Assembly (NCBI GenBank): GCA_964276515.1
Contig: OZ193910.1
Location: 1-64,000 of the forward strand
DNA: 64,000 bases
Origin: Gordius albopunctatus
Lineage: Eukaryota
Direction of reading: 5' to 3'
The notes beneath the pieces are model-generated. The model was given only the letters and a program-made list of their open reading frames with translations. It ran no database searches and was not told the origin of the DNA. Below are positions 21,966-63,339 of the stretch, one piece after another (position 1 is the stretch's first letter; every line of letters starts with the position of its first letter). The position numbers and the translations under genes are program-made.

Positions 21966-24900
21966 TCAGGTCGGAAACTGGCTATAAAAACCAACTCCAT
22001 AATCAGATAGTTTCAAACAAGATTTTACAAGGAAAGGCTAGGGCGTCCTCCACAAGCGACGCGCACTGCATACCCCGCCTGTGCAATGTGAAAAATACAC
22101 TAGGATTACTGCCTAACTCACAACGAAGGCGGTTAAGGAAACTAGTTAAAGAATACGCATTACGTGCTGGAATGTTGGAACGTTGACGGGGAAGAGCATC
22201 GAGGTCGCACAAATGCAGAAGAAAGGTACAGATCGTCTGTCTACAAGAGACGAAGTGGAACAGAACAAAAGCTCTAGAATTAGGAGAAGGATACAGGCTT
22301 TTCTACAGTGGGTTACCAAATCGTAGAAACGTGGTCGGTATCGTTCTAAGCGAATCATCCTAGGAAAAGGTGGTAAGTCAAGCGTTGTTCCGACAGGCTA
22401 ATGTAGGTGAAGATTGCAGATCAAGGGGGCCTTCTAACCGTTATGTGCGCGTATGCCCCCCCCCCCCAAATCGGATGTTTGGAATCAGAGAAAGACATAT
22501 TCTTCGATTTATTGGAAAAGGATATACAAGGAATAGGACAGGAAGAAAGGCTAATTATTGAGACAGATTTCAACGCTCACGTTAGAAAGATCGCCTCGGG
22601 TATGAACGCAATCATGGAGGCTATGAGCATGGTCTGAAGAACAAAGAAGGGAAAAAATTTCTCCAAGTATCCCAGGCATATGACATGGCGATCGTTAACA
22701 CCTATTTTCAAAAGCGCGAAGATAATATTGTGACCTATAGAAGTGGGAAGCATTTTAGTCAAATCGACTATTTGCTTATACGGCGAAAGGACTTATATAG
22801 CATAAAGGATTGCAAAGCAATACCGGGAGAAAAAATCGCCAGGCAACATCGTCCCCTTGTTATGGATCTTGGCAGAAGAGTATTTCCCGAAAGAAGAAAG
22901 GTCTATGAACCTCGGATTTGATACGAAAGGCTAAAGGATACGTCAACAAACAAAGAATACCAGCAAAAAGCCTGCTCACTTATGGGTGCAAGGAAGTTGC
23001 AAAGGGACATAGACGACGATTGGGAGACGATATCTAAGGTCATTAAGGAAACATCGATTCGTGTTCTAGGACAGACCAAAGGAGGCAAAGCTATGAATAG
23101 GGAACTATGGTGGTGTGATCAATCGGTTAAAGATTTCATCGAAAGAAAGATGTATATAGACGGTGGCATAAATCAAAAAACTCAGAGGATTATCAAGAGT
23201 ACAGGTAGGCAAAGAGGGCCGCAAAAAAGGCCGTTGCAAAAGCGAAGAATGCCGCAACTGGATCATAAAGGGGGAGGTAGGCTTATGTACCAATTGGCCA
23301 AGATAAGGGAGAAGAAAAGACGCGATGTCGGAGTTCTTAAAATAGTCAAAAGCGAGAAGGGTAAAACCTTATTCAAGCCGAAAGAAGTGACGGAAAGGAT
23401 ATTTTAAGAAACTTATGAATATAGCAAATGACAAGGATTCCCTTTCCGAAATTGATCCAAATATAAGTATGGTAAAACTCTTTCAGGAGGACAAAGTTAG
23501 GACACAAATGAACAATATGCAAAAAGGAAAAGCAAATGGCCCAGATGGAATACCTATGGAAGCATTGCTCGGATGTCGTGAAGATACAGTCACCACCATG
23601 ACGAACCTCTTTAACAAGATATTGGTAGAAGAGCGAATACCTAATCAATGGAGAGCAAGCACGATTATACCCTTATTTAAAGGCAAACTAGACCCTCAGG
23701 ACTGCGGAAATTACAGAGGTATTAAGCTAACCTGCCACTCTTTGAAGCTTATGGAAAGAATCTTAGTAACAAGGCTTTAAAACCAGGTGGAAATATCGGC
23801 TAATCAATTCGGATTCGTCGCCGGCAAATCCACAATCGACCCAATCTTCGCCCTAAGACAAATTATGGATAAGTATGGTGAAAAGAGGAAAGACCTACAT
23901 ATGGTTTTTATCCACTTGGAGAAAGCTTATGACACGGTCCCTCGCGATTTAATATGGTGGTGCCTGAGGAAACAAAATATCCCTGACGCATATATACGGC
24001 TTATGAAAAATATCTATGAAGCCTCAAACTCTTGCGTTACGACGACAGTTGGAGACTCTAAACCTTTTTGGGTTAATATTGGATTACATCAAGGCTCTGC
24101 TTTAAGTCCCTTTTTATTTAATACAATTATAGACACGATAACGAGGGACTTTCAAAAGCCATCGCCATGGTGTATGCTATATGCCGATGATATAATACTA
24201 TGCGAGAAAACAAAGGAGAAAGTATTCGAAGAAGCCGAAAAGTGGTCAAAGCGCTTAGCTGGATATGGGTTAAAGGTCAACGATTGAAAAACGGTATACA
24301 TGGAAATAAACGGTACAAGCACCCCATCGCTGGATGACCACCTAAAGTACCCAAAAGTAGACAGGTTTACTTACCTCGGCTCGATGCTACATCAAGAGGG
24401 AGGTTGCACAACGGAAGTCAATTCCCCGATCCATAAAGGAGCCGCTTAAATGACGAAGTATATCTGGTGTAATGTGCGACAAGAAAATGTCAATATGGTT
24501 CAAGAACAAAGCTTACAAATCCATCGTAAGACCTATGTTACTCTATGGAAGTGAAACATGGGCATTAAACACCACGGAAGGAAAGCTATTACAAGCCACA
24601 GAGATGAGAATGATACGGTGGAGCCTGGGGTATACTAAGCTCTACCATATGACGAATGACTTTCTCATGACAAAAATGGGTATTCAATCTATGGCGGACA
24701 TGATTAACGAAAATCTGCTAAGTTGGTATGGGCATATACTAAGGAGGGATACGGATAACGTAAATCGAAAAGTACTGGACATGGAGGTACCGGGGAATAT
24801 AGGAAGAGGACGACCCCGTGTCACGTGGAAAGGGCAAGTGGATAAAGTTATGGAAACTAAAGAGATTAGTCAAGACATGGCACTCACCCGGTCAAGATGG

Positions 24901-24966
24901 ATGAAACTTATCAAAACAAACCCCACCAATGGGGGACCAAATAACTGATAAAGAAGAAGAAGAAGA
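21914..24966 (+). mobile_element. Full-length but decayed RTE-clade LINE (APE + RT), intronic
   Basis: APE motifs (CWNVGTL, DFNAHV, SQIDYLL) and RT motifs (NYRGIKL, GLHQGSALSP, YADD) are spread over several frames; (GAA)n tail at ~24952-24966. Confidence 0.95.
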
Positions 24967-28679: not shown

Positions 28680-28845
28680 CCTACCCCCTTAATTGCAGTT
28701 TTTTGATATAAAGCCAAAATTTGTAAAATATCAGTTGATGTGTGATCCCTGCACAAGGTGAAAGGCTTTGAAGGAAAAATTATAAAGCAAGAGATAGTTT
28801 CATTATATAAATCCTAAAGTAAAACTTTGAAGCATTGAATATTGA

Positions 28846-30130
28846 TCGCTATGCAATTTATGGGCTCACTTTCCATTTTCCCAAGTAACGCACCGAAGTG
28901 TACCGCACCGTCATGTCACGGACCGAACGTGTCACGCACCAAATGTGTAACGCGACCGCATCTACACACGCTTAACGCTTTTGCCTCTCTAGATATGGGG
29001 TTCGATACCCGGAGCGGCCAAAAATTTTTTTATTTTTTAAATAAAATTAATTATTGTTCCTGTTAATAACATTGATAATATGGGTTAATGGCCGTGCTTA
29101 TGCCTCCCCAGATGTGAGGTTAAAATCACGGAGAGGCCAAAAACATTTTTTTAAATTAATATATTACTCTTGTTACTACCATTGATAATATGACTTTTTG
29201 GCCGTCCGCTGGCTGTTGACCAATGAAAAAATGACCATTGGCCAAATTGTGAAACAAAATTTTTTTTTCGTTTTTTTTGACTCTTATGTATTAATAGACT
29301 ACTCATGGTACGGACCAATGAAAAAAAATGACCATTGGCCAAAGTTTTAATCAATTTATTTTTCGTTGTTTTACTCTTATGTGTTTATATCAACTTTTAA
29401 CGTTACCTGGCTGCTGACCCATTGAAAAAATGACCACTGGCCAAAGTGTGAATCGAAATTTTTTTTCAGTTTTTTGGCTAACATTGATTTATAGACCATC
29501 TGTTGGTAGTCAACAATGGAAAAAAATGATCATTGGCCAAAATGTGAATCGAATTTTTTTTCGTTTTATTTGGCTAACATTGATTTATAGACGGTCTCTT
29601 GGTACTGATCAATGGAACAATTTAGCACATGTAAATTTTTTGAAATATTCTTATGATACCTTGACATTTTTAGATGCGCGGTCGTAACAGGGAATAGCGG
29701 AGCTATTGCATCGCTATTGTACACTTTAAATTTAATTTTTTTTTCATTACTCTCCATATATAATATGCCTATTCATTTCGCTTAGGAATTTATGGGTTTT
29801 ATGCGAATTTCCTTAACGCTAAGATTATCTAATCAATAAAGCCTTTCTAAGCACGTGACTAGGCACAATACTTCCATACATACATCCATATTATTTTAAT
29901 TGCAATACCTTTTGTCAGTTATATTAATTGTTATGCAATCATGACGATTCCTACATAAATTGCATAGCAAATAAGCTTTGTTTATAGGAAGTATAAAAGA
30001 GTAATCGATGTGTATAAGGATTTGAAGTAAAGATACGTGAAGCATGGACTGGCCTAAGCTAAACGGTGGTCTGGGGGCGGAGCATCCAGGTAACGGGGGT
30101 TTGGGGGCGAAGCCCCCAGTTACGCATTTT
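28846..30130 (+). mobile_element. Non-autonomous Helentron/DINE-1-like element (copy 1)
   Basis: Subterminal inverted repeats GCTATGCAATTTATG (28848) / CATAAATTGCATAGC (29954), short GCACCG-type repeats, central ~97-bp tandem repeats, and a 3' hairpin TGGGGGC-GAA-GCCCCCA (30102..30118). Confidence 0.65.
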
Positions 30131-30788: not shown

Positions 30789-33765
30789 TCAGTTATTTGG
30801 TCCCACATTGGTGGGGTTTGTTTTGATAAGTTTCTTCCATCTTGACCGGGTTAGTGCCATGTCTTGACGAATCTCTTTAATTTCCATAACTTTATCGACT
30901 TGCCTTTTCCACGTGACACGGGGTCGTCCTCTTCCTCTCTTCCCCGGTATTTTCATGTCTAGCACTTTTCGATTTACGTCATCCGGGTCCCTTCTTAGTA
31001 TATGCCCATACCACCTTAGCCGATTTTCGTTAATCATGTCCGCCATAGGTTGAATACCCATTTTTGTCATGAGAAAGTCATTCGTCATATGGTCGAGCTT
31101 AGTATACCCCAAGCTCCACCGTATCATTCTCATCTCCGTGGCTTGTAATAACTTTACTTCAGTGGTGTTTAATGCCCATGTTTCACTTCCATAGAGTAAC
31201 ACCGGTCTTACGATGGATTTGTAAGCTTTGCTCTTCAACCATATTGGCATTTTCTTGTCGCACATTACACCGGATATACTTCGCCATTTAAGCCATCCTT
31301 TTTGAATCCGGGCATTGATTTCAGTTGCGCAACCTCCCTCTTGATGTAGCATAGAGCCGAGGTAATTAAACCTGTCTACTTTTGGGTATTTTAGGTGATC
31401 ATCCAGCGATGGGGTGCTTGTACCGTTCATTTCCGTGTATACCGTTTTTCGATCGTTGACCTTTAAACCATATCCAGCTAAGCACTTTGACCACTTTTCT
31501 GCTTCTTCGAATACCTTCTCCCTTGTTTCCTCGCATAGTACTATATCATCGGCATATAGCATACACCATGGCGATAACTTTTGAAAGTCCCTCATTATCG
31601 TGTCTATAATTATATTAAATAAAAAGGGACTTAAAGCAGAGCCTTGATGTAATCCAATATTAACCCGAAAAGGTTTAGAGTCTCCAACTGTCGTCCTAAC
31701 GCAAGAGTTTGAGGCTTCATAGATATTTTTCATAAGCCGTATATATGCGTCAGGTATATTTTGTTTCCTCAGGCACCACCATATTAAATCGCGGGGGACC
31801 GTGTCATAAGCTTTCTCCAAGTCGATAAAAACCATATGTAGATCTTTCCTCTTTTCACCATACTTATCCATCATTTGTCTTAGGGCGAAGATTGGGTCGA
31901 TTGTGGATTTGCCGGCCACGAATCCGAATTGATTAGCCGATATTTTCACCTCTTTTCTCAGCCTTGTTACTAAGATCCTTTCCAAAAGCTTCAAGGAGTG
32001 GCAAGTTAGCTTGATACCTCTGTAATTGCCGCAGTCCTGAGGGTCTCCTTTCCCTTTGAATAAGGGTATAATCGTGCTTGCTCTCCATTGATTAGGGATT
32101 CGCTCTTCTACCAATATCTTGTTAAGGAGGTTCGTCATGATGATGACTCCTTCTTCACGACATCCGAGCAATGCTTCCATAGGTATTCCATCTGGGCCAT
32201 TTGCTTTTCCTTTTTGCATCTTGTTCATTTGTGTCCTAACTTCATCCTTCTGAAAGAGTTCGACCATACTTATATTTGGCTCAATTTCGGGAAGGGAATC
32301 CTTGTCATTTGCAATATTCATAAGTTTCTTAAAATATCCTTTCCACCTTTCCATCACTTCCTTCGGCTTGAATAAGGTTTGACCCTTCTCGCTTTTGACT
32401 ATTTTAAGAACTCCGACATCTCGACTTTTCTTCTCCCTTATCTTGGCCAATTTGTACATAAGCCTATCGCCCCCTTTATGATCCAGTTTGTTTGCCATCT
32501 CGGTGTACGCAGCATTCTTCGCTTTTGCAACGGCCTTTTTTGCGGACCTCTTTGCGTCCCTGTACTCTTGATAATCCTCCGACATTTTTGATTTATGCCA
32601 CCGTCTATATAGATTTTTCTTTATTTCGATGAAATCTTTAACCGATTGATCCCACCACCATAGTTCCCTATTCATAGCTTTGCCTCCTTTGGTCTGTCCT
32701 AGAACACGAATCGCTGTTTCCTTAATGTCCTTAGATAGCATTTCCCAATCTTCGTCTACGTCCCTTTGCAACTTCCTTGCACCCAAGAGTGAGGAGGCAT
32801 TTTGATGGTATTCTTCGTTCGCCGACGTATTCTTTAGCCTTTCGTATCGAATTCGAGGTTCATATACCTTTCTTCTTTCGGGAAATACTCTTCTGTCAAG
32901 ATCCATAACAAGGGGACGATGTTGCCTGGCGATTTCTTCTCCCGGTATTACTTTGCAATCTTTGATACTCCATAAGTCCTTTCGCCGTATAAGCAAATAG
33001 TCGATTTGACTAAAATGCTTCCCACTTCTATTGGTCACAATATGATCTTCGCGCTTTTGAAAATAGGTGTTAACGATCGCCATGTCATATGCTTGGGATA
33101 CTTGGAGAAGTTTTTCCCCTTCTTTGTTCTTCAGATCATGCCCATAGCCTCCATGATTGCGTTCATACCCGAGGCGATCTTTCCCAAACATTGAAATCGG
33201 CCCCAATAATTAGTCTTTCTTCCTGTCGGATTCCTTGTATTTCCTTTTTCAATGATTCGAAGAATATGTCTTTCTCTGATTCCGAACACCTAATTTGGGG
33301 AGAATACGCGCACATAACGGTTAGGAGGCCCCCTTGATCCGCAATCTTTACCCACATTAGCCTGTCGGAACAACGTTTGACTTCCACCAGCTTGTCCTTG
33401 AACGATTCGCTTAGAACGATACCGACCCCGTTTCTACGATTTGGTGACCCACTGTAGAAAAGCTTGTATCCTTCTCCTAATTCCCGAGCTTTCGTTCCGT
33501 TCCACCTCGTCTCTTGTAGGCAGGCGATGTGTACCTTTCTTCTTTTTAACATCTGTGCGACCTCGATGCTCTTCCCCGTCAACGTTCCCACATTCCAACA
33601 CGTAATTCGCATTCTTTCCACAACTAGTTTCCTTAACCGCCTTCGTTGTGAGTTGGGCAGTAACCCTAGTGTATTTTTCACATTGCACGGGCGGGGTATG
33701 CAGTGCGCGTCGTTTTTGGAGGACGCCCTAGCCTTTTCTTGTAAAATCTCGTTTGAAACTATCAT
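30789..33765 (-). pseudogene. RTE APE-RT polyprotein with a single frameshift
   Basis: GADFN(AH)VGKDRLG is disrupted relative to the plus-strand copy; the rest is open. Confidence 0.9.
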
Positions 33766-33805
33766 AAATTTTGGAGTTGATTTTTATAGCCGGTTTCCGA
33801 CCTGA

Positions 33806-41395: not shown

Positions 41396-42289
41396 GGAAA
41401 TTTTAAATGATATATAAAAGCCCCGCGGGCCGGGCTTGGACGGGCTTCTGCTTAAAAATAAAACAACGGGGCGGGCCTGGACGGGCCGATATATAATGTA
41501 ACAGACTCGCGCCGGGCCTAGTTATTCATAAGGCCCGTTAAAATCCCGTTAAAAAATTAATTAGATTTAGTATAAAAGAAGATATTTTTATAATTTTCTA
41601 ATTTGTAATTATTTTATGTATATATTAAATTAACGAGGAAAGTTAAATTTTGTTTCCATCCTAGTTCATTAATTCATCAATAGCTCAACCCGTATTATAA
41701 ATGTTAAAGGTAATTTATACACGTGATCCCATGGGCGGAGCCAATATAAATTAGAGGGGCGCAGTTTAAATAGGGCAAAAAATGTTCTTTTTATCAGGAA
41801 TTTTTGGATTTGGAGGTGTACAGCTGCCCATATTTGCCTCCCCATTTATACCCTCTAGCAATATTGAGTGAATTAATTTAATATTATTTAAAAATATTTT
41901 TTATTTAAATTGCTATGCAATTTATGGGCTCTCTTTTGGTTATCCGTCCTGCCCTGTCCAACTTGTAATTTTAGCAATAATTGCCGTGGAAACTTATACG
42001 GATTTTTAATGGGCCTGGACTTATGATTTTGTGAAAGACTTCTTTTATTTAGCTGACCGCTGATTGGCTTTACTGTTTTCGACCTCGCCCAAGCTCAAAT
42101 TCCATTATTGTTTTTGTGCCTGACTGATCACCCTTATTAATGAACTTATTTTGGCAATTTGTCTAGGTTGTTAATTTATAACGGATGATTGCGAAACTGG
42201 CTAAATAATTCCCTGCAAATTAATGCTCACCGTTGTTAACTTCTACTTTATCTGACCCCGGCCAAATGCCAAAATTTATATAGTCAAAG

Positions 42290-45620: not shown

Positions 45621-48439
45621 CAGAAGATACCAAGGTCAGATCAGCTGTATCATTTATTTTTCCTTTTTAAGGATATATCGCAACCAAGGCACTCTTAGCG
45701 TCTATTTGCCTCATTTTCTCTCACTGCACTATTTGCACCTTCTTCACAAGTTTGACTTGATCGGGATCTTCATGTTTGGCTCGCTTAACCAATCTGCACA
45801 CCATTTATTTCTCCTCCTCGTCTTTACGCCTTTTAGCCATTAAATCTATTTCCTCTAAACACAAATGGAGCTTTAACATCTGATACCATCTTATATTCAG
45901 GTCCCATTTTGTGAGAATCTTTCCGTTGTTCTGCGACCAAAGATTTTGAAAGAATAACCTTCAGCTCAAAGGCATGGCACAAAAAGCCATAAACTTAAGA
46001 ACTAACTTTTGATATTCCTCTTTATTGAATCATGGTCAATTTTGCTGTGGGAAGGGAAAGTTTCGTCTTGGCATGAAACAATTCAATCAAATTTTGAAAA
46101 GCAGCAAAAATACGTTGCTCTTCTTTCAATTGATTGACTCCAGCTGCGCCTTCCCATTTTTGATGTGTCGTGATCTCTCAGGAGCGAAGATGGAGGTCCC
46201 AACAGGAACCCGTTTCCGTTGACGCTAATATCGCTGCGTTTATCGGATTGTAAAGTTAAACCACCTTCCACATGACGGGGTAATTGATGGCTAACTTTAT
46301 TCGACCCAATAACTGCGGAGGTGTCAAAATAACTTTGGGTTGCATGGCTATTAGGTCGAAGATTGAAGTGGTCTTTTGTTAATAATTAGCCATTTTTAGT
46401 CTGTCCACAGTCATCAAAGGCTCGATGGTGAATTAAGATAGTTGAATCGATTGACTGCAGGAGTGGCATTTCCCTGACCTTGCTCACAATACTTCGTTGT
46501 TCTTTATTAAGCTCGTTTTTTTGCTTTAAAATTTAAATTATAAAGTGGTATAACTTAATAGATTGTGCATTTAGATTATTCAAATCTTTGTGCTTAATTT
46601 GAGTCTTTTCCGTCTATTTTTTACCATATCTTTATTAACCATTGAGAGAATAGACAAAATTTAGGCTAGGCTATTTTTTATTTGTTCAAATAAAAAGTAA
46701 AGGATTAATAATAATTTTTATTATATTCGGTTAACACTCTTATTTAGAAAAAATAACTGATTCATTAAAACACAAAATTTGAAGCTTCAAAAATCATCAA
46801 TCTTGAACGATGTATATTTTTTGCAAAATCGTCATCAATTTTATGCTAAAAACTTTATATTATAGTTATTTCTTATTTATAATCTATAATTCATCAGGTG
46901 AGCTATTGTTGAATTCTTTATATGAATGCCGGCAAAGATTAAACTGTCTATCCTTTACTTCTTTATATGGCGCATAAATTTTTTAAATCAATTAATTTGC
47001 ATTTTTTACAAGTCCTATTACGAAACTTAAGCATCCAAGACAAAAAAATTATTCGTTAGCCTAAGAGGTCATATGACCCAGGCGGTTCTAAATTTTTCCA
47101 AAATTTAATTACTACAACAATCCGTTGTAACTTTTTGTCAAGCTATTTACAAATTATGCTCACCTAGTATTTTTATGATAAATAAAGTTTTGGGTCATAT
47201 TGTTTTTTAAAAAGAAGCAATGGAAAAAGGAGGATATTTTAGTAGTTCTCCTCCCTAAGAAATATCAAATTTTAGTCGAAGCTTTCTCATTTTCAACGGT
47301 GTCTAGTTAATTCCCTTGTTTAAAGTATTGTATTTCAGTAAGATTCTTTAAGCTAGTTCCCTTAATCAACTTTGCAAACATTTATCGACTTAAAAATTAA
47401 ATTTGCATACATTAAACCCATAGATTTTTAAAATAGAATTCATTACCTTTTAAATTAAGATACTATATATAATAAAACTTTATCCTTATGTTTATGTGGT
47501 CTATATCATCAAGTTATGGGATACAATACGACTTGCGTTTTCAGTGTTAAAATTGATTTAAATGAACTGATCTCGTATACGAAGCAAGAACAAATCACCT
47601 GGTACGACCTTTCAAAAAATGTTGAAAATCAAGTAAGTAGATTTGTTTACTATTTCAATTAATTGCACGTGTTATAAATTCCTAATAAAGTAGGTTTAGA
47701 TATGCTGATTCCTATGTTTTTAATTGCTATGCAATTTATGGGCTCGATTTCGGTGATATGTGTCCCTTCAAGTAGCGCCCCGTCCTCTGCAGTCCTCTCT
47801 TTAACTCCACTTACGGAGGGTTTATTATGGTTAAGACTTAAGGAGATAGTAAAAAACTTATGCTAATGGATAAGACGCTTGGCTCCCCCATATGATTCGC
47901 TACATACCGCTAGTTGCCTTAAATTTTTCCACCTCGCCGGAGTCGAAATTCCAATTTAATTTTTAAGCCCCCCCCCCCCCCAACTTATTCTTTCAAAAAA
48001 GTGGCAATATGTCTAGATTATTGTGTTATAACAGATAATTGCACAATTCGCTATATAATTCCCTACGAATTTATAATGACCGTTGCTTACATAAAAGTTT
48101 CCCGATCCGGACACCAGGCCAAGATCCAACTTTATTTTATTTTTGCCAATTACATTGTAAATAACTTTTGAATCTCGTCCAACATTTAATTTGTCTGACT
48201 CTAGACAGAGGCTAGATTCTATATTTATTATTGGGCCCGCAGCTTTTGGACATTTTGATACCAATGCAGCATATAAAATAATTTCCCTTAAAAAATAAAA
48301 TGCTGATTTTACTTCCGAAGACCAACCATCATTTTGTCTGAGCCTCACTTGATTATTAGTTTAATGACTGTTCCCGGGCCAAGGACCAATTTTTCTTTTT
48401 TATAACCTCAAATTATTCTCTTGCTAAGCTGTAACAAAA

Positions 48440-50570: not shown

Positions 50571-51819
50571 TACTCATTCCTTTATATAACGATTATTAGG
50601 GATGTTGATTAATAAATGTAAGCTATAAAAGCACGGCAATGCTTCCTCATAAATCGTTTCAATTGGTTGTAGAGCCCCGGACGCATAAACTATTAACTTT
50701 CATTCTCATTGTTAAAGTTTTGCATCAAGCCTCTGAGGCGTTCATTACAGCCCCTACTTTTTTAACCCTAATTTTATCTATGCTAGCGCCAATGCTGTAA
50801 ATAAGTTTTTATCCCCCATTCGTTTATTGTATTTCCTGGCCTTCCCTAAATGCCATGTTTATCTTTAATTATTTTTCAAGGGCAATTCTTTTTAAAATCT
50901 TGTGAAATATTAATAAGAATTAATCCTTAAAATGAATGACTTCACGACGTTCTTGGTTATTAGTTGTTTCCACTCTCACATACCGGACTTAATTTCAGTA
51001 TGCCTTCCTTGCTATTTCTAAAACTTTAATTATATTATTAGCTCGGAAATTAATTTTGGTGGTGGACATAAAATTCATTTTTGCAGCGGTGCGTTTTTTT
51101 TCTTCGGTATCTCCTGCCACCAATATATAGACGATGTACGCTGCCACCCTCTAATCCTTCCAGGATTTGCTACATAATCTTTTATAAGATGGCAGCAGAG
51201 TAGTTAAGTCCGAAATGCATGGGCTTGACCTTAGTTATTCCTTTGTGTAGTGAATTTATAGGACACCGGCTCATTCATCGACATACCTTAAGTTGCATGT
51301 AGGCTTTAGCGAAATCTATTTTTTCAAACCAAAATTGTAAGACGAGTAAAATATAATAGATCATCGAGTTTTAAAACAATACTCGATTCATGGAAATATT
51401 TATTAATTGTAAAGCGATTTCTTAAAAAAATAAAAATACACAAAAAATTAAAGTGTACTTTTATTCACTTGCGGGGGGGGGGCAAAAATTGATTCTGCAA
51501 AAAAATGGGGTTTGTAAAGAATAAGAGGTAAACACAAATGGTATTTAATTTAGGCTTATGATTTAATATTTTTTTTACCCACAATTAAAAAAATTATAAT
51601 GATATTAATTGCTATGCAATTTATGGGCTCACTTTATATTTGTTTTAATTGCTATGCAATTTATGGGCTCGCTTTCCATTTTCCGAATGTCTTGTCACGC
51701 ACCGAATGTCACGCACCGAATGTCACGCACCGAATGTCTTGTTTAACTAGTTTTTGGGTTCGAAACCCGTGGATTTCTTTGACTATTATGATTGTTCCTG
51801 TTACTACCAATGCTTTTAA

Positions 51820-54560
51820 ACCTTTTTGGCGGTCCGCTGGCTGCTGACCGATGGAAAAAATGACTATTGCCCAAAATGTGAATCGAAATTATTTTTTTCG
51901 TTTTTTTTGGCTAACATTGACAATTACCCTATGCCCTCCCCTAACAGAGCCTATGCCTCTACTGATATGGGTCCCTGTGCCCCCCCCCTACATTATGCCT
52001 ATCCAGATCTGTGGTTCGATTTCCGTAGAGGCCAAAAAATTTAAAAAAATTTTTTTTATTTTTTTACCATTGATAATGTGACTTTTTGGCCGTCCGCTAG
52101 CTACTGACCACTGGAAAAAAATGACCATTGGCCAAAGTGTGAATCGAAATTTTTTTTCCGGTTTTTTTGACTCTTATGATTGTTCCTGTTAATAACATTG
52201 ATAATATGGCGTTTTGGTCCTCCGCTTGCTACTAACCAATGAAAAAAATGACCATTGGCCAAAGTGAACATCAAAAAATTTTTTTTCGTTTTTTTGGCTA
52301 ACATTGACTTATAGAGTATCTGTTGGTACTGACCAATGGAAAAAAATGATCATTGGCCAAAGTGTGGATCGAAATTTTTTGTTCGTTTGTTTTTGACTCG
52401 TATGTATTTATAGCCCGTCTCTTGGTACTGACCAATGGAAAAAATGACCATTGGCTAAATTGTGATTTAAAATTTTTTTTTCGTTTTTTTTGACTCGTAT
52501 GTATTTATAGATAGTCTCTCGGTACGGATCAATGGAAAAAAATGACCATTCGCCAAATTGTGATTCGAAATTTTTTTTTCGTTTTTTTGACTAGCATGTA
52601 TTTATAAACCGTCTCTTGGTAGTGACCAATGAAAAAGAATGAACATTGGCCATATTGCTTAAGTAAAGGCTAAAATTTCAAAATGCTCCTCCCAAAATAA
52701 TTATTTTCGTTTTTGAATAGATTAACGTTGATAATTACCCTATGCCCTCCCCTACAAGTGCCTATTTTTAGATTAAATTAATATTTTGTTCTTGTTGATA
52801 TTTGTTAAATTTTCTATAATATATTGATTTTCTATTATTGTTTCATTTTATTATATAATAAACATAAATAAAACACATCTTTATTATTTCATTATCTATA
52901 TAAATAACATAAAAACTTCTTTTATTTTAAATGGTAGCTTGGTAAGAGTGGTTATAGCAACGGCTTACTGACTTGGAGGTTGGGAATCGAGACCCGGAGA
53001 AACCATAATTTTTTTTTTAATTAAATTAATATTATGTTCTTGTTAATACCATGGATAATATGACTTTCTGACCTTCCGCTGGCTACTGACCAATTAAAAA
53101 AATGACCATTGTTCAAATAAATCGAAATTTTTCGTTTTTGAATAGGTTAACATTGATAAATTGCCCTATGCTCTCCCCTACAAGTGCCTATGCTTCTACT
53201 GATATGGGTCCCTGTGCTCCTACAAAGGCTTATGCATCTATTTAATGTGGTTTCGAATTCCGGCGAGGGCAATTTTTTTTTAATTAGATGGAAAATTTGT
53301 AGAAACATTTTGCATATAACGACCATAAATTGCATAGCAAATATGTTACGTTTATACGGAGTATAGATGAGTCGTCCCCCCTTCCCTTCCCCCCTTCCCT
53401 TCTCCCCTCCCCCTTCCCACGAGGGCCGAAGGCCCGAGTATGTCTTGCTACCGAATGTCTTGTCACGCTGTTTACTTTCATTATTAATTGCTATTATTAA
53501 TTTAACTAGTTTTTGGGTTCGAATCCCGGGTTTTTTTGACTCTTATGATTGTTCTTGTTACTACCATTGATAATAAGACTTTTTGGCCGTCCGTTGGATT
53601 TTGACCGATGAAAAAAATGACCATTGGCCAAAATGTGAGTCCAAGTTTTTTTTCGCTTTTTTTACTATTATGATTGTTCCTGTTACTATCAATGCTATTA
53701 TGACTTTTTGGCCGTCCGCTGACTGCTGACCGATGGAAAAATGACCATTGGCCAAATAAATCGAAATTATTTTTTCGTTGAATTGGGTAATAACATTGAT
53801 AATTACCCTATGCCCTCCACTATAAGGGCCTATGCCTCTACTGATATGGGTCCTTGTGCCCCTACAAAAGCCTATGCCTCTATTAATGTTGGATCGAATC
53901 CCGGCGAACGTTCTGAATTGCTTGTTGGAATCCCGGAGAGGCAAAATTTTTATTTTTTTTTAAATAAAATTAATATTTTGTTCTTGTTAATACCATTGAT
54001 AATATGAATTTTTGACCGTGCCCTGGCTACTGACCGATGATAAAAATGACCATTGGCCAAAATGTGAATCGAATTTTTTTTTTTTTTGAATTGGTTAACA
54101 TTGATAATTACCCTATGCCACCTGATATGGGTCCCTGTGCCCCTACAAAAGCCTATGGCTCTATTAATGTGGGTTCGAATCCCGCCTAACGTTCTGAATT
54201 GCTATTTCGAATCCCGGAGAAGCAAAATTTTTATTTTTTTTAATTAAATTAATTTATTGTTCTTGTTAATACCATTGATAATATGACTTTCTGACCGTGT
54301 TCTGGCTACTGACCAATGAAAAAAATGACCATTGGCCAAAATGTGAATCGAAAGTTTTTTTTCATTTTTTTTGACTCGTGTGTATTTATAGAACGTCTCT
54401 TGGTACTGACCAATGGAAAAAAATAACCATTGGCCAAACTGTGATTCGAAATTTTTTTTCGTTTTTTTGACTCGTATGTATTTATAGACCGTCTCTTGTT
54501 ACTTACCGATAAAAAAATGACCATTGGCCATATTATTTTTAAGTGAAGGCTAAAATTTCA
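51820..54560. repeat. Complex tandem array of ~97-130-bp hairpin units interleaved with tRNA B-box modules
   Basis: Recurrent TGACCAATGGAAAAAATGACCATTGGCCAAA.TGTGAATCGAAA units and CCTATGCCTCTA...GGGTTCGAATCCCGG modules. The same units occur at 29200-29620 and 58650-58860. Confidence 0.9.
52933..53005 (+). pseudogene. tRNA-derived (tRNA-like) sequence
   Basis: 73 nt with an A-box-like TGGTAAGAGTGG, a degenerate T-arm GGGAATCGAGACCC, a partial acceptor stem GGT..CT/AG..ACC, and a downstream T-run. Confidence 0.55.
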
Positions 54561-56303
54561 AAATGCTTCTCCCAAAACCATTATAAAATGCTGATTTTTA
54601 AAATTAGTGGGCAACTGCCCCCCCCTCTACCTCTCCTAGATATTCCCAGGCAAGGGGGTAAATTTTACCCCTGGCCGCCCTGGGAACCTACAGCTAAAAT
54701 TTGGATGCTTAATTAAGTAACAACACAAAATAATTTCTTAAATTCTTGTCCTTTAAATTATCACATAGAATTTCACAATATAAATATTGATTTTCTATTA
54801 TTGTTTCATTTTATTATATAATATATTAAAATCTTTTAAAAGGTCAAATAAATTTTTTAATAACCTCGTTTTTATATTTTGCATTATATTATCCGGAATT
54901 TTAAATAAAGCTTGTAGTAATTGTTTATCTACAAAATATTCAATTTTCTTTCCCGCTCAAACATTAATTTCCTTAGTAAAGGCCTAATCAATGATATTTA
55001 AAGATTATCTCACTTTTATATAATTATAATAATAATATTTAGCTCAATACTTTGGCAAATTTCGCCATTATTTTAATAAATTTTAGAAAATTTTTGGATT
55101 TAGAGGAAAACAGCCGCCCCTTTCTGTCTCCCTTAACTATACCCATCAATGAAATATAGGAAATTTACAACAAATGTTGAAATTTTAATAAAAAAATTGA
55201 TTTAATATCTATAAGAGTTCCAAAATCAATAAATTAACATCTCCCCTCCCTCCCTCCCTCCTTCCCCCCTATAAAATCAATGGTTTTCCAAGCACGGGTA
55301 ATATATCCTTGCATAGAGGTATGGGTGGGGGGTAGGGGGTTGCACGATATTTTCCATATCTTATTTATGGCGTTTGAATCAATAGAATTGGATAGCAATT
55401 AATAACCTCTCTCCCCTCCCCCTGTAAAATCCATACGTCATTATTGTATTAGGGGCAGGAGTGGAGGAGATGGAGAAAGGGAGAGAGAGAAGGGTTAGTA
55501 TTATTAATTTATGTGCTTTAAGATCAGCCGCTGTGGAAAAAAATAATAATAGCGTCGCACTTATAGGGATTGGAAATTTATTTTCGCCTAACTAACAGGG
55601 AAAGTAGAAAAATAAAGAATTAACTGTGAGAAACAAAATTATGTTATCTGATCTAAATAATTAATGTTAAAATTAAAATTTCCTATGAAGATTTAGGGTA
55701 AACCTTTACTGTTGCTCTTGATCTAGTCTAGGGACATTTTGAAAACAAGGATCCCCAAGTAGACTAAATTTATATCTTAATGTTGGTACAATTATGATAC
55801 TGCCATATAAATAAGCAACTTACACAACTCTCATGTATTATCTTCTTAACCTTCCATCAATTACCGTATCTCATCTCTGTAACACCAGTGTAGAATATAG
55901 AACGATGATCCGAAGTTTGCATCTCCAAAATATTTAAAGATCACCCTTTTGCCCATTTATAAAACTTTTGCCTCTCTCCTATTCAAAATCTTGGCTAGGC
56001 CCAATTTGATCACTGTTTTCAAAATTATTGATATAAAATCCAAAAATGTGTGATGTTCTTAAAGTCCTGTACGTCGCCCGAAGCCCGATCGGGATCGAGA
56101 GGGTTCCCCAAATATTTTATAATTTTTTTGCGGCCCCCCATTTTTTCATAATAATTTATATTTGTTAAATTATCTATAATATATTGATTTTCTATTATGG
56201 TTTCATTTTATTATATAATAAAAAAACACAACTTTATTATTTCATTATCTATATAAATAACAAAAACTTCTACCATTCAAAAAATTATTTTCATTATTTA
56301 AAT

Positions 56304-56377
56304 ACCAGCAGGGTGTGAGTGGTTAAAGCGAACGGCTTGTAAACAGGAGGCAACGAGTTAGAATCCCAGAGAGGACA
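56304..56377 (+). pseudogene. Second tRNA-like copy abutting the RT element
   Basis: GTGTGAGTGGTTAAAGC...CGGCTTGTAA...GGAGG...GAGTTAGAATCCC, with the same ~130-bp AT-rich upstream flank as the 52933 copy. Confidence 0.5.
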
Positions 56378-56553
56378 AAAATGCGATATATGTATATCAA
56401 AAATATGGTAGAATTATTCACGCGAGAAATTAACACACCGACGAGGGGCAAGGGTTCAGTAAGCGCCGAGTGGGGAAACGATGAAGAGTAAAAGAGGGGT
56501 GCTGAATTATACTATGTTTCTTAGACTCTTTTACGGTATTCCAGTTTTGCAAA

Positions 56554-58473
56554 CTAGTTGGTGTTCTGGCCGTGTGTGAAGTTCGAGCGTGTCCAATGGA
56601 TTATGTTGCCCAGTTGGAAGTCGTCGAAAAAGCTTTCGCGGGAGGGTGCATCGGCTGGATTGTTGTCCGTTGAGACCCATTCCAGGTTCTGCTTGATTTT
56701 GATCATGTTGTCCAAGCCCATTACCTCGCATATCTTGGTGAACGCGTACTCCAGGTGTGGTGCGTGTGCACTGCCCTTCTTTATGATGTAGAACGCGGTA
56801 CGAGAATCCGTCAAGATCTTGGGGTTGAGGTGTGGAGTGTCTACTGCTGCTTTGATGAAGGCCAAGGGTATGGCAACCAGCTCGAGTAGGTTGATGGTGG
56901 GGATGAGGTCGTGAACTGCGAAGATGGCAAGCGCATCACTTTTGGCAATAGAGAGGACGGAGCCTCTGTAAAAAATACCAATATGTGTGAGTGAAGCATC
57001 TCCAGCAGTGAACCCGTTCGTGTCGTAGCGCATGCGGAAAGGTGTTGAGAGGTGTCGTTGGACCATGAGAATTTTTCGGACAACCCATTCTGTCCGGAAT
57101 TCGATAGGGTCAGTGGCTAGTAACATGTTGTAGGCTGGGGAAATGAATTTCGACCATCCCGTGAGTATGTAAACGTAGTGTGTGAGAATGCCCAAACATG
57201 TCTGAGTTACTAGCGGGTGTGGCTTGACACCTTCCATGAGGAAGTGGTTGAGGATCTGCGTGGCTGCATCGATCTTTTTAACGAATTTAGAGTTGATTTT
57301 GAGTGTACGAGTTTCCAAGTCCACGTGGATACCTAAATAATCCATCCTAGTGCGTGGAACCAGGCATGATTTGGCCTTGTTGATAGTCAGATTCCAACAT
57401 TTGGCTAGGTATAAGAACCTTCTAGTATCAGCCAACACCAGGGTGGAGGATGAGCCATAGATCAGAATATCATCTAAGTAAACATTGTATTTGGATTTTG
57501 TAATCGCCTTCTTGCATAAGTCCAGCATGATTTGTTGGAGGACGAATGGGGAGAAGCTTGCTCCCATTGGTAGTACTTTGTAAGCGTACTTACGTCTCCG
57601 ATATCGAAAACCAAAGAATTTAGCAACATCCGGAGCCAGGGGAATCGAAAAGAAAGCTGCTTTCATGTCAATTTTCGTCATGAATTTGGCTTCGGAGAGT
57701 GATGATGCGATAAGTGGGATAGATTTAAGTGAAAAAGGGTATTTCACAAAGTTTTTGGAAATCTGGGAGAGGTCCGCGATGAGACGGGGGGAACCATCAC
57801 TTTTAGGGATAAAGTACATGGGTGATGGAATAGTCCCCGGATTCTCCCTGACGATATTGGACAGTATGATTTCGTCCACAAGCGGTTTGTGTTCGCGAGG
57901 GATTGCTTTGACGTATCGGGGGATGTGATACCGACCATAATTATTGACAATGGCCTTGCGAGACAATTTTGGTTTAAATCCAAACTTTGCTACCCGTAAT
58001 GTGAAGGGGCTTTGCTTCCAGTGTGGTCTTAGAATGGAAGTACGGATGGAAAGTGGTTGGTCAAAATTGACGAATGAGGATAACGGATGAGTTGGGAATA
58101 GGGGAATATTGGACGGCTCGCTGATGATTGGTGGGCCTTCGCCATCCAGACCCACCTCCGTCCATTGTGATGAGAGTAGTCCCGGCACATTGGTATGCTC
58201 AGGTAGCGACGTGCTAAAAGGGTGTGGCAACTCTTCTAGCTCCGGGCCATCGTCGGGAGAGATGGAGTTGATAGCGATGCTCCTGGCAATGGCAGTATAA
58301 TTTATGAGCCATGTTGGAGCATTTCCATCCCTCACCGACCTCGGCGGGTTAACACCACTGCCGAGGGTCGCCGCTACCGTCCTAACATAATTACGTTCTC
58401 TCCGCCCGAGGCGGAGGCGGCCCTTTGGGTTTAGGGCCTTTCTTCCTTTGACCATATCTCGTGTCAGGCGCAC
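56554..58473 (-). CDS. Intact RT-RNase H polymerase, hepadnavirus-like/DIRS-related
   Basis: 639-codon ORF (first ATG at 58455). RT motifs FIPKSDGSPRLIADLSQISK, KIDMKAAFFSIPL, LPMGASFSPFVL, YLDD, INKAKS, YLGI; RNase H motifs GDAS, INLLELVA, LTDS, NPADAPSR. Confidence 0.92.
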   Translation of the reverse strand: MRLTRDMVKGRKALNPKGRLRLGRRERNYVRTVAATLGSGVNPPRSVRDGNAPTWLINYTAIARSIAINSISPDDGPELEELPHPFSTSLPEHTNVPGLLSSQWTEVGLDGEGPPIISEPSNIPLFPTHPLSSFVNFDQPLSIRTSILRPHWKQSPFTLRVAKFGFKPKLSRKAIVNNYGRYHIPRYVKAIPREHKPLVDEIILSNIVRENPGTIPSPMYFIPKSDGSPRLIADLSQISKNFVKYPFSLKSIPLIASSLSEAKFMTKIDMKAAFFSIPLAPDVAKFFGFRYRRRKYAYKVLPMGASFSPFVLQQIMLDLCKKAITKSKYNVYLDDILIYGSSSTLVLADTRRFLYLAKCWNLTINKAKSCLVPRTRMDYLGIHVDLETRTLKINSKFVKKIDAATQILNHFLMEGVKPHPLVTQTCLGILTHYVYILTGWSKFISPAYNMLLATDPIEFRTEWVVRKILMVQRHLSTPFRMRYDTNGFTAGDASLTHIGIFYRGSVLSIAKSDALAIFAVHDLIPTINLLELVAIPLAFIKAAVDTPHLNPKILTDSRTAFYIIKKGSAHAPHLEYAFTKICEVMGLDNMIKIKQNLEWVSTDNNPADAPSRESFFDDFQLGNIIHWTRSNFTHGQNTN

Positions 58474-58649
58474 GAAAAAGCTGAACAGGCTCGGTGTATT
58501 GGCCCATTCCCATCTTTTCTGCCCAGTCTTTTGATTTACCGGTTACTGCCTGCCATCCATAGTATGAGGCCATGGCCAGCGTCCTGACTCGGTCAGAAAA
58601 TTTATCTACCGTTTTGTTGAAGTCTTCGATTGATTCCCCCATGCTGAGT
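58391..58649 (-). CDS. Gag/core-like ORF, probably 5'-truncated, overlapping the pol ORF
   Basis: MGESIEDFNKTVDKFSDRVRTLAMASYYGW...RYGQRKKGPKPKGPPPPRAERT (ATG at 58642). It overlaps pol in another frame; sequence above 58650 belongs to the tandem repeat. Confidence 0.6.
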
Positions 58650-61600
58650 GCCGTCCGCTGGGTACTAATCAATGAAAAAAAGACCATTGGCCGCATTATG
58701 AATCTAAATTTTTTTTCGTTTTTGAATAGGTTAACATTAATAATTACCTTAAGCCCTCCCCTACAAGGGCGTATGCCTCTACTGATATGGGTCCCTGTGC
58801 CCCTATAAAGGCTTATGCTTCTACTGATGTGGGTTCGAATCCCGGAGAGGGCATTTTTTTAATTAAATTGAAAATTTGTATAAATAATTAACTAATAATT
58901 TTGCATTTAATACCCCCCTATAGGCATTCTCGCGCCTTTCCACCTTTCTCGCCCATAAATTGCATAGAAAATATGCTACGTTTATACGCAGTATAGATGA
59001 GTCGTTTGCCCTTCCCTTCCCCCCTCCCCCTTCTCACGAGGGCCGAAGGCCCAAGTTTATATTTTTGCATAGGCCAGGGGTCAATAAGAGCTCACAGTCA
59101 CAACCATTGCCAGCAGTAGTAGTAGAAGTAGTAGTAGTAGGAAGAGTGTGACCCACCAACTTGCCGAAAACCAAATTCAATGTCCCATGGTTAAAAAATG
59201 TTCACCAATTAGAAAATTTAGCAGACCAAAAAGGGCTATTAATCATTCGATTTCAAATTTAAGTTGAAATTAAGGTTTTAATGTCCCAAGTAAATTCGGC
59301 AAGATGGTTTTCGGTGAAATGATATAGGACACCCTAGACTTTAATTCATAATACTAAAAAAAAGGAGGTTGACCTCAGGTCAGAGGCAATTTTTAATTTA
59401 ATAATTAATTGTGCTAGGATTAAAATTATTTTTTTTAATTTATTTATCTCCCCTTTATTTACAAATCCAATCTATTAAATCGAATTTTAACCGATTAATT
59501 TGCAGTTAATAACTTTTTTAAAACGCCAAAATCAATGTTTTTGGCAACTTAGCCATTAAATATTATTTCGTTAACTTGCTTATAAGGAAAACTAAAAATA
59601 TTTATCTTCGCCGTAAAAGATTGTAGCAGAATCTACATATTATATTTATCATCGAATTTATTGTTTTAAGTTGAGGTTAGGGTAATAAAGTTTAGGCGAA
59701 TTGGTTTTGAATTATACAGAGCCATACTTGCGATCAGAATGAATCTGACAGATTAGATGAATGGTCATGGGCGTAGCCAGGGCCCCTAAATGAAGAAAAA
59801 AAATTTCAATGCAGGAACCCTTAAAAATTACAAAAAAATAGATTTTGCCCCCCCCCCCCTGATTGAACTTTTAAGCGTTTCGCGCTGCCCCCGCCCCCTA
59901 AAAAAAGCGCACAAATTATACCAATAATAACGATTCATTCCATGTGTATATCAATGTAATGTGTTTAGCTTAAACGTGTTATTTATAATTGGATTTTTCT
60001 TAAATATACTGATAGTTTTAAATTGTATAAAGATTACTCTAATCTATTTTGATTTAAGGCCGTTTGTGCCCTATTTATAATTAATAAGATTTCAGAACCA
60101 CTTAAATATTTTAAAATCCGCTACAGAGCTTATTTGTCCGCCCACAGCAGACCCATTTAAATTATCTATTTAAAAACCAGCCCCGTGCCCGTGCTTATTT
60201 ATAATTCGGTTTACATTTTGAATAGGGGCTAATTTAAATGGATTAAAAATTGTGGGATAAATGAACAGTTGACCTTAAAGCATATACTATTTTATATAAT
60301 CCATTCATACAAAAGATAGACAAAAAAGACCTGCATACAATATATTTGCATATACTTTTGTGTTAAGCTAAAGGGTTATAAAAGGTACGAAGGTGAAAAC
60401 TATTTTTGTCAAATATTGAAACTTTTTCTTATATTTATAACTAAATATAAATATTCATGATGGTATTTTGCAAGGTTGATAAAATCTACATGAAAATATT
60501 TGCCAATGAATTTATATCAGTTGCCCTATTTGAAAGCCCATATGAAGGAATATTGCAGGGTTATATATATCTTCGTGATATTTTTGAAGATGTCTCCCTA
60601 AATTTGACAAACTATTTGTTTGACAAACTTATTATTCTGACCCCCATAATCATGCATATAGAGCCGGACCAGATTAAAATTGAGGCCATCCAAGGTACTA
60701 TCAATATATTTTAACTTCAATGTTTAATAGGAGTTTGCGTCAAATTTAACCAAGATAATAGAATTCTCAAATTTTCCATTTCTATGCTTTTTATTATTGT
60801 GGCAATATGTGTTTTACTTGGAGCGCTTTACATTCAAGTTAAAGGTATTTAAAATTATTGATATTTTTAGGGAAGAATGTTTATTTGTGTCATAACTTGT
60901 TATACTTAAAAACACTTACCTTTTTAATGTAATTTATCTTTAGTATTATTACATAATATACTCATAGAATATTAAATTCAATAGAATCGGTAAATAAATA
61001 AGTATTGCAGAAAAATTTATTACGTGTCATCAGGCTTTTGAGCGAGGTCATAATAGAGGGCGCGAATACATTTTTAACCATATTATAAACTTCAATATAA
61101 AGATGTTCTATAGTGTTTCCATCTCATTTCGTCTCAATGTCGAGAGCAAAATCTTATCTCTTCTCGGCTGAGATTATGAAAATCACGATATTATCTTATC
61201 GGAAATATTATTTTAACTTCTCTTGACTTTTAAAAAAATTAAACTGAATAAATATTTCTCCTCTTTTATTGATATTATAAGTGTTATGGAAAGTTTAATA
61301 GCATTTATAATCATGAGAAGCATTAATACACAAAAATTATAAATATTTAGCGCAACATCTCAATAATAATATAAAGATATGAACTAATATAACATTTTAT
61401 ATTAAAAATGAAAATTAAAAAACTATAAATTTGAAATAAAGACCATTTAATATTATATTTCTAGCAAATTATAACATTTGTGTCTGTCAAATATAAATAG
61501 ACTTAGAAAATATACTCTAATATTTACTTAATTACATATTTGGGCAAATTGTGACCCTTTATTGGCTAAAGCCTCAAAGTAGACCTTAACATATTTAAGG

Positions 61601-62031: not shown

Positions 62032-62879
62032 AATGTAATATTTGTATTAACGAAAGATACATCGTATTATTATATTGTTATGTTCGGTATTCCTAGTGCA
62101 TACAATTTGTATATTGAACATATGACCTAATTTGAATAAACATTTAAATTGAGTACGCTATATTCTGACGCGACCGACAGGATCTAAGAAGATCATGGAA
62201 TCTATTCCTAGCTACAACCCTTCAGATAAGATAGAATCATATTTGTTCACATTAGATCATATATTCAAAGCTAGGAACATTACGGATCTAAATAAAAAAG
62301 CAAACACACTGATTCTGGCATATATGGGCCAAAGCAATATTGAAAAGATTAGATCTTATTTATATCCTAAGGATATTACCATCCTCACCTATAAGGAATT
62401 AATTGATGCAATCAAGAAAGTTTTTCAAATTAAAAGAACAATATTCAAAAACAGGTTAAATTTTATAAGATGTATTAAACAGGAGGGAGAAGAAATAAAG
62501 GACTATGCTAATAGACTTAAGACAATAGCAGAAGAATGTAATTTTGCTACTAACCTAGATGAACATCTCAGGCACCAGATGTTACACAGGATCCAAAACA
62601 AAACAGATTCCAATGGCAATACAATAACATTTGAAGAGATATACAAGATAGCTGAAGCCATGGAGTTGGCCAAGAAAGAAGTCATAACTTACGAAATTGA
62701 TGCTATAAATCCAAGGTATAAGCCAAAAACTAAACAACAACATTATGGGAAACAACAACATCACAATTGTTCTAGGTGTGGCAAACATCATGAACCAAAG
62801 AAATTCTCAGCGTTTTACAAACTATGTTTTATCTGTCAGAAAAAGGGTCATTTTTCAAAATTCTGCCACACAAGAAATG
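62032..62879 (+). mobile_element. Ty3/Gypsy 5' fragment: LTR end, PBS and gag
   Basis: PBS-like TG(A/G)CGCGACCGACAGGAT at ~62166. Gag ORF 62195..62890 has Q.EGE.I.DY..RL...A..CNF and two zinc knuckles (CSRCG..H, CFICQKKGHFSKFC). Confidence 0.85.
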
Positions 62880-63339
62880 TATTGTCTTAAGTCTATTAGC
62901 ATAGTCCTTTATTTCTTCTCCCTCCTGTTTAATACATCTTATAAAATTTAACCTGTTTTTGAATATTGTTCTTTTAATTTGAAAAACTTTCTTGATTGCA
63001 TCAATTAATTCCTTATAGGTGAGGATGGTAATATCCTTAGGATATAAATAAGATCTAATCTTTTCAATATTGCTTTGGCCCATATATGCCAGAATCAGTG
63101 TGTTTGCTTTTTTATTTAGATCCGTAATGTTCCTAGCTTTGAATATATTATCTAATGTGAACAAATATGATTCTATCTTATCTGAAGGGTTTAAGCTAGG
63201 AATAGATTCCATGATCTTCTTAGATCCTGTCGGTCGCGCCAGAATATAGCGTACTCAATTTAAAAGTTTATTCAAAATAGTTTATATGTCCCATATACAA
63301 ATTGTATGCACTATCTTTCGTTAATACAAATATTACATT
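62880..63339 (-). repeat. Inverted duplicate of the Gypsy LTR end, PBS and gag 5' half
   Basis: Reverse complement of ~62032..62527. ORF 62829..63212 repeats the gag N-terminus with two amino-acid changes. Confidence 0.92.

Follow-up and report, generated by a model that had tools for sequence, protein, structure and literature searches.

Where does an intact reverse transcriptase (RT) gene from the end of a horsehair-worm chromosome belong, and how could its element move with neither an integrase nor a recombinase beside it? The question is raised by a 2.27-kb cassette (56382-58649, minus strand) in the first 64,000 nt of contig OZ193910.1 from Gordius albopunctatus (GCA_964276515.1), the whole stretch being called the window here. 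Its RT and RNase H invite comparison with hepadnaviruses, with retrotransposons of the DIRS type and with HEART, reportedly the hepadnavirus-like retroelements of Gong and Han from 2018. Passages in PMC12691608 present a model in which hepatitis B viruses derive from an invertebrate HEART retroelement that escaped, and according to passages in PMC12440569 HEART samples are few and often mutated at conserved residues, with their mobilisation left unresolved. On balance we think it probable that the cassette is an intact chromosomal copy of a multi-copy, HEART-grade retroelement family that likely copies itself via RNA with its own RT-RNase H and enters the genome by host repair or capture, a route made likely by the absence of integrase, recombinase and terminal repeats from this copy.

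The cassette contains two open reading frames (ORFs), which are laid out as follows.

58391..58642, minus strand: ORF1, 83 aa with a Pro/Lys/Arg-rich C-terminus, overlapping the first 65 nt of P
56554..58455, minus strand: P ORF, 633 aa, RT and RNase H, without protease, integrase, methylase or terminal protein
58123..58455, minus strand: P residues 1-111, basic at the start, then Pro/Ser-rich, predicted to be unstructured (pLDDT <50)
57844..58122, minus strand: helical pre-RT segment, about residues 112-204, of the type seen before the RT of DIRS and of methylase-less relatives
57322..57810, minus strand: RT core (RVT_1), with KIDMK at residue 261 and YLDD at residue 326 (57480)
56638..57003, minus strand: RNase H, with acidic residues in GDAS (485), LLEL (523), TDSR (549) and NPADAP (599)
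56381..56553, minus strand: 3' non-coding tail, 173 nt

From stop to stop, the frame of P covers 58542..56554 on the minus strand (662 aa) with zero internal stops. An earlier note, made from the letters of the window alone, had described an uninterrupted ORF of 639 codons; the frame is indeed uninterrupted, while that length requires a GTG start at 58473, as the first ATG lies at 58455 and yields 633 aa. The same note correctly saw that the ORF is richer in GC than its AT-rich flanks (0.483 vs 0.306 at 54500-56300 and 0.292 at 59200-61000) and that it stops 27 aa past the final RNase H motif, with non-repeat sequence following. All RT and RNase H motifs quoted there lie at the expected places, and the full set of RT and RNase H acidic residues is present. 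A Pfam scan of P detected RVT_1 alone (E 1e-22, 81.4 bits). The AlphaFold model, built on 132 sequences (mean pLDDT 79.5, pTM 0.77; pLDDT of 36.7 with five sequences), displays disordered residues 1-111, the helical pre-RT segment, RT, thumb and RNase H in this order; a DIRS-like pre-RT region had been suspected in the earlier note. Foldseek against viral and PDB libraries assigned P an LTR-type (long terminal repeat) RT-RNase H fold without discriminating families, the matches comprising retro-, caulimo-, Ty3 and hepadnaviral RTs with no clear winner; in a PDB sequence search, the 60 matches listed of 206 were confined to RTs of Ty3, foamy viruses and HIV.

ORF1, which the earlier note had missed, starts 187 nt from the start of P, and a host repeat described below begins just beyond, so that the 5' end of ORF1 is possibly cut. 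It revealed zero Pfam matches, and no homologue was found among 32 candidates from longer proteins or in 4,610 local sequences. Its product may be RNA-binding and gag- or core-like, and a likeness to the DIRS gag motif A..GW..V could not be confirmed. In the 3' tail, AATAAA, TATAAA and a stable fold were all looked for and none was found.

An exhaustive search among 1.84 billion representatives revealed three nearest proteins at 38, 40 and 44% identity (E-values of 4e-93, 3e-65 and 2e-55; fourth match 2e-34), all from the horsehair worm Gordionus sp. m RMFG-2023 (LOC135926043, LOC135924019 and CAK9296138), annotated as uncharacterised host proteins and located on sequences of 64-94 Mb. Together with P they form one clade in the RT+RNase H tree (100/100), and judged by these relatives alone a nematomorph is the likely host of the window. 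In DIRS and PAT elements, a methylase-like domain after RNase H is frequent, not universal. It is absent from P, which carries only the 27-aa tail there, and from the two Gordionus proteins (of three) that reach the end of RNase H; among the relatives, P0085 and P0086 lack it. A word-indexed search with P resulted in identities of only 21-30%, with DIRS-type proteins as top matches.

For phylogeny, group labels were assigned from domains and motifs, not from curated names, and Ngaro-like, RTE and gag motif are used as working labels. A motif scan located 22 loci, 21 of which supplied the hepadnavirus P sequences, and Ty3 served as outgroup. In the careful trees, 30 of 76 rows were dropped, namely redundant ones, a fragment and six with long branches (the post-RT tree omitted 32), while the 48-row tree was a quick tree with Shimodaira-Hasegawa-like approximate likelihood ratio (SH-aLRT) support only. 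As the earlier note had expected, the RT-RNase H was placed on the hepadnavirus side and outside DIRS/Ngaro in all five trees, and nesting inside DIRS/Ngaro was not observed. The worm clade, 11 methylase-less proteins and the hepadnaviruses grouped with support of 96/96 for RT+RNase H (46 rows) and 99/97 for RT alone; the post-RT half alone, with a slightly wider set including 13 methylase-less proteins, gave 92/88, and the same hepadna-side composition obtained SH-aLRT values of 95 (76 rows) and 96 (48 rows). Constraining the worm clade to DIRS+Ngaro was rejected by the approximately unbiased test (p-AU 0.031), and constraining it alone with hepadnaviruses was not (p-AU 0.16), an exclusive clade not being shown thereby. 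Branching inside the hepadna-side group was poorly supported, the sister group of the worm clade (P0172, P0223 and P0233) reaching a bootstrap of only 88-90.

The 11 methylase-less proteins grouping with hepadnaviruses (P0090, P0095, P0102, P0118, P0164, P0172, P0175, P0201, P0203, P0223 and P0233) belong to a set of about 20 unnamed proteins, mostly on contigs of 2-4 kb, with RT, RNase H, a short tail and no methylase. Among those scanned, P0118, P0164, P0172 and P0201 passed the cut-off of PF00336, the hepadnaviral polymerase C-terminus, as did the DIRS protein P0147 (23.5 bits); P itself remained below it. Class-motif scans yielded 59 loci, 18 of them with a profile match, of which only L040, L064 and L085 were methylase-less. 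The metagenomic relative L064 has a short ORF overlapping the start of its P, and Pfam detected no recombinase in its upstream 1 kb. At L040 (357-3479), a methylase-less RT fragment is cut off beside other sequence, followed by an unassigned 269-aa ORF without Pfam match that may be virus-capsid-like, and at L085 (1576-2139) the P0102 RT gene has its 3' end duplicated in inverted orientation (183 nt, 98%). Related-locus searches found no relatives of P0172 in metagenomes and none of query A1 among viral contigs, and sequence searches returned neither VIPER nor HEART sequences. With the nackednavirus and proto-nackednavirus RT patterns, 1 and 6 matches on viral contigs of 5-44 kb were obtained and taken as chance.

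HEART was compared by published rows only. Shared with it is a chromosomal RT of an invertebrate on the hepadnavirus side and outside DIRS, and the proteins P0172, P0223 and P0233 (joined to the worm clade at 88-90) resemble tick HEART rows by eye (W.H[IL]D, P...F.LP). Seven tick HEART RTs have the catalytic motif [HY][LI]DN and LPFG, as far as data sets S4 and S6 of PMC12691608 give them; the window element differs in having YLDD, LPMG and D[FL]S..SK, in its intact RNase H and in the selection on its upstream ORF. Its host phylum is likely new for elements of the HEART type. The literature search found no paper on such elements in Nematomorpha, subscription journals lying outside its coverage, and 'hepadna' occurs 0 times in a 2024 nematomorph genome preprint. 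The screen of 5,500 genomes mentioned in passages of PMC12691608 may nevertheless have met them.

The earlier note had argued mainly from hepadna-type motifs, which holds in part. According to our census, D[FL]S..S[KR] occurs in 3/3 worm rows, 9/9 hepadnavirus rows and 0/63 others, and SP[FYW].[LM] in 3/3 worm, 9/9 hepadnavirus and 0/30 DIRS rows. GDAS and YLDD, on the other hand, are states of DIRS/Ty3, PMG is also present in 3/3 Ngaro-like and 4/30 DIRS rows, and NPAD.PSR in 5/30 DIRS rows. Most of this motif argument is not supported, since L048, which bears a methylase-like tail, has the same LPMGASFSPF string and yet groups with DIRS; a classification of P by motifs alone was rejected for this reason and based on the census. 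YMDD, P[KR][FY]..PN and FRK.PMG were found in 0/3 worm rows each, vs 9/9, 9/9 and 8/9 hepadnavirus rows. Profile scores of P were 235.5 for the 11 methylase-less proteins, 220.9 for 30 DIRS, 118.1 for Ty3, 70.0 for Ngaro-like and 49.5 for nine hepadnavirus sequences; P thus keeps many ancestral DIRS-like states.

In regard to what the cassette lacks, a tyrosine recombinase was sought by comparing four C-terminal DIRS parts, of which two bear the HSTR motif, with the entire window by tblastn, and one weak match resulted (E 0.14, at 44455). Neither this search nor Pfam revealed a recombinase, integrase or LTR, in line with the earlier note, and inverted terminal repeats with an internal complementary region (ITR/ICR) and split direct repeats were likewise not found, all in this one copy. 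A hidden Markov model (HMM) of the hepadnaviral terminal protein, built from 11 hepadnaviruses, scored positively neither on 54-60 kb translated in all six frames nor on 22 relatives; its controls reached 267-281 bits, all three being training sequences. PF00242 was absent from P in the Pfam scans. With a core HMM trained on core ORFs or fragments of them from hepadnaviruses (10 in all), ORF1, which may be 5'-truncated, scored 0.0 bits, and RTPV is likewise described as lacking core in passages of PMC12691608. The Rfam scan resulted in a single match (E 0.17), taken as chance.

Like Blubervirales, the element combines RT and RNase H in a single ORF without protease or integrase, has a short tail after RNase H, displays the D[FL]S..S[KR] and SP[FW].L states and carries an upstream ORF overlapping P. 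In contrast to them, it has no terminal protein, core, surface ORF or YMDD, the direct repeats DR1/DR2 and an epsilon-like fold were not found in a cassette whose ends may be cut, and it is multi-copy and chromosomal. The element is not a Blubervirales virus, because even proto-nackednaviruses have a terminal protein, DR1/DR2 and epsilon (according to passages in PMC12691608). The suggestion of an endogenised non-enveloped pararetrovirus made in the earlier note is not supported, as terminal protein, core and YMDD are missing, the terminal-protein fold looked for at the N-terminus being contradicted by unstructured residues 1-111 and the negative HMM. A related explanation, in which a non-enveloped hepadna-like DNA virus of the host was endogenised and selection acted in the circulating virus, would account for the tree position, the short basic ORF overlapping P as core does, the missing integration enzyme and a GC content above that of the host. 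The best match of P in the Foldseek viral library, an unnamed 634-aa protein (TM 0.50) with HBV P at rank 8, also fits, though Foldseek cannot separate hepadnavirus P from retro- or caulimoviral RTs, and one diverged subfamily with raised read depth (see below) adds a weak hint. We nevertheless regard this explanation as improbable in view of the missing viral features and motifs, and the cassette, whose ends may be cut, showed no direct or inverted repeats >10 nt, nor did any of five segments fold significantly (best z -1.6).

Copies of the element were studied in contigs from two sequencing runs (X1 and X2) of one study, which is possibly the source of the assembly. No RNA data set was listed as containing the stretch, which has no bearing on expression. 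Contigs with zero differences over the cassette showed a depth of 168-175 in X1, compared to 176 for the flank, so that the window copy behaves as nuclear single-copy DNA. Further contigs diverge from it by 13-20%, the longest gap-free one covering 1,164 nt and several having internal skips. The summed depth over the RT core was about 8-25x the single-copy figure and greater near both ends, which is not a copy number. The element is thus endogenous and multi-copy in an invertebrate genome. That the locus might be an assembly artefact, a contaminant or a domesticated single-copy RT gene is most improbable, since zero-difference contigs match the flank in depth, many diverged and deleted copies exist and relatives lie on chromosome-scale Gordionus sequences; the junctions that no listed contig bridges and the common origin of both runs speak for it.

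Among the listed differences in P, 30/41 were synonymous and 31/41 at third positions, compared to a chance expectation of 23.5% synonymous (binomial p 3e-11, calculated under independence although the differences are not independent). In ORF1, 5/6 listed differences were synonymous, the other two frames giving 1 and 0. These sequence differences show both ORFs to have evolved under purifying selection during the divergence of the copies, the mostly synonymous pattern implying a family that replicated under selection.

Segment 56439-56515 is common to many more host contigs than 56362-56438, the depth falling about sevenfold, which suggests, without proving it, that many copies end about 115 nt past the stop of P. 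A head-to-tail joint was not seen among 15 listed contigs of 29, all short assembled ones. The diverged subfamily mentioned above, covering 56946-58267, reached depths of 5,477-5,637 in X2 (single copy about 440-650) and 696-844 in X1 (single copy about 170), or about 12x and 4-5x; this contrast may reflect a copy-number difference, free DNA or library bias. Next to the cassette, 55600-56100 is a moderately repeated non-coding stretch with a cassette-like depth profile and no ORF of 80 aa.

The cassette sits inside a host repeat, of which three parts are needed here.

56108..56380, plus strand: left host-repeat part, an AT-rich module and a tRNA-like A-box/B-box segment (56305-56380), outside the RT cassette
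58650..59060, plus strand: right host-repeat part, with a central unit, 3' subterminal inverted repeat (58954) and terminal hairpin (59038-59053)
51606..53440, plus strand: cassette-free HINE-like copy, the empty-site comparator

The limits that the earlier note gave the element correspond to the stretch interrupting this repeat, which is uninterrupted at 52783-53200. The left part aligns to 52783-53032 (about 90% identity over 126 columns), and against the empty unit (52783-53200) the 2.27 kb take the place of about 65 nt that separate the tRNA-like segment from the next unit; at the cassette borders, the sequence shows no target duplication. The empty copy displays a 5' subterminal inverted repeat (subTIR) at 51609/51649, a 14-nt microsatellite at 51693, 97-bp tandem units, a 3' subTIR at 53324 and a hairpin at 53421. 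This corresponds to the HINE layout of 5' subTIR, microsatellite, central tandem repeats, 3' subTIR and palindrome given in passages of PMC7492417, so that the flanking repeat appears to be of the Helentron type and HINE-like. From HINE/DINE-1, which are non-autonomous Helentrons, it differs by its tRNA-like B-box segments and, here, by the 2.27-kb RT cassette; an autonomous partner was not seen. The tRNA-like A-box/B-box segment is present in the filled as well as the empty unit (56305-56380 and 52935-53005) and lies antisense directly past the cassette 3' tail in the former; no tRNA gene was called on it. Further stretches of the repeat, whose internal tandem units measure 96-97, 125 and 279 bp, occupy 51606-54584, 28839-30002, 41900-41936 and 47718-47751, giving about 4.3 of 64 kb together with the two flanking parts. 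Its summed depth rises up to about 1e6, compared to about 170 for single-copy contigs.

Given this seat, the cassette might be a passenger spread mainly by the surrounding rolling-circle repeat. Helitron-type elements capture sequence, as stated in passages of PMC7492417, and besides its position inside a HINE-like unit a second junction was present in both runs, joining the repeat hairpin end (59065) to cassette position 58307; X2 also shows a form joining 56126 to 58708. We give this little credence, as passive copying would not yield 30/41 synonymous differences at 13-20% divergence, and the share of the window covered by the repeat makes chance adjacency likely.

Other features of the window concern its setting. 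It begins with a telomeric (AACCCT)n array (1-2714, 453 units) and has a GC content of about 33%, both of which identify it as a eukaryotic chromosome end. The earlier note considered every other transposable-element ORF broken, which applies apart from a near-complete RTE-type LINE (long interspersed nuclear element) at 30789-33783 (minus strand) that keeps an 806-aa RT frame, its endonuclease part lying in another frame; a broken relative of it was found at 22922-24948. At 62032-63339, a Ty3-type gag fragment with zinc knuckle forms a long inverted duplication (434-nt arms, 98%).

The main rival to an intact HEART-grade element is a truncated tyrosine-recombinase (YR) retrotransposon, either of the VIPER type (gag-YR-RT/RH, RH being RNase H) or of the Ngaro type (YR downstream), which lost YR and split repeats when cut by the HINE-like repeat. 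VIPER and TATE of kinetoplastids share RT/RNase H with our element, and passages in PMC6681497 report that the RNase H of VIPER also groups with hepadnaviruses and that VIPER possesses gag-like, YR and RT/RH ORFs and split direct repeats, whereas here an 83-aa ORF precedes P. The pre-RT helical segment, YLDD, DAS, IN..KS and the RNase H length are shared with DIRS/PAT/Ngaro, from which this copy differs by the missing methylase, recombinase, ITR/ICR and split repeats and by its exclusion in the trees. Both cassette ends abut a repeat, and its terminal regions are, on a rough measure, covered more deeply than the RT core, a pattern that non-autonomous derivatives would produce. We judge such a truncation rather unlikely, as the ORF directly upstream of P is the selected ORF1 without recombinase match, the short-ORF layout recurs in L064, the clade excludes Ngaro-like and DIRS rows, and the sevenfold depth drop points, short of proof, to a common copy end.

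Several observations weigh against the HEART-grade interpretation and partly favor this rival. The trees contain no true HEART, nackednavirus, proto-nackednavirus, VIPER or TATE rows, their branch to the hepadnaviruses is long, and the rejection by the AU test is modest. DAS and YLDD of the worm clade are DIRS/Ty3 states, hepadnaviruses having DAT (8/9) and YMDD (9/9), the RNase H length of P is DIRS-like, and its raw similarity to hepadnaviruses is lower than that to DIRS. For P0085, the Atlas feature clusters ranked highest are mostly Euglenozoa where known, with three members each, and hepadnavirus P appears at rank 20. Only one copy was observed together with its flanks, no contig among those listed bridges either cassette-repeat junction, and ORF1 starts 6 nt from the repeat, so that a cut at the 5' side, with loss of a recombinase, is conceivable. 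The difference lists contain the 40 with the best support out of about 780 and out of about 530; they were scored relative to the window copy and hence are not independent events. Priming and integration, finally, are inferred.

Taken together, sequence comparison would make the lineage a new group of invertebrate hepadna-side retroelements that resembles reported HEART and is neither Blubervirales nor canonical DIRS. For such an element, a single transcript may give rise to ORF1 and P, and the basic tail of ORF1 might bind or package the RNA. P would then reverse-transcribe from a non-protein primer, either RNA or the free 3' end of DNA; hepadnaviral protein priming is disfavored since the N-terminus of P is unstructured. 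The resulting cDNA might become joined to the chromosome at breaks, or the abundant rolling-circle repeat might take it up. More tentatively, and at present doubtful, the family could represent a living autonomous two-ORF class without integrase, recombinase and terminal protein, in which the horsehair-worm clade would rank with the nearest non-viral relatives of Blubervirales and which, with free-DNA replication and entry by repair or Helentron capture, would preserve a stage before the terminal protein. The closest-relative part of this proposal draws on the constraint that was not rejected (p-AU 0.16) and on D[FL]S..S[KR], shared with hepadnaviruses by the worm clade alone.

Altogether, since this copy is intact and has a second ORF under selection, and since its family includes many diverged copies and relatives in a chromosome-scale worm genome, both priming and insertion without integrase or recombinase and the origin of the terminal protein become testable. 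The approximately 20 unnamed methylase-less RT-RNase H proteins suggest that the hepadna-side radiation is much larger than described, and if the two-ORF class is real, 11-20 unnamed metagenomic proteins would represent a wider undescribed radiation of it.

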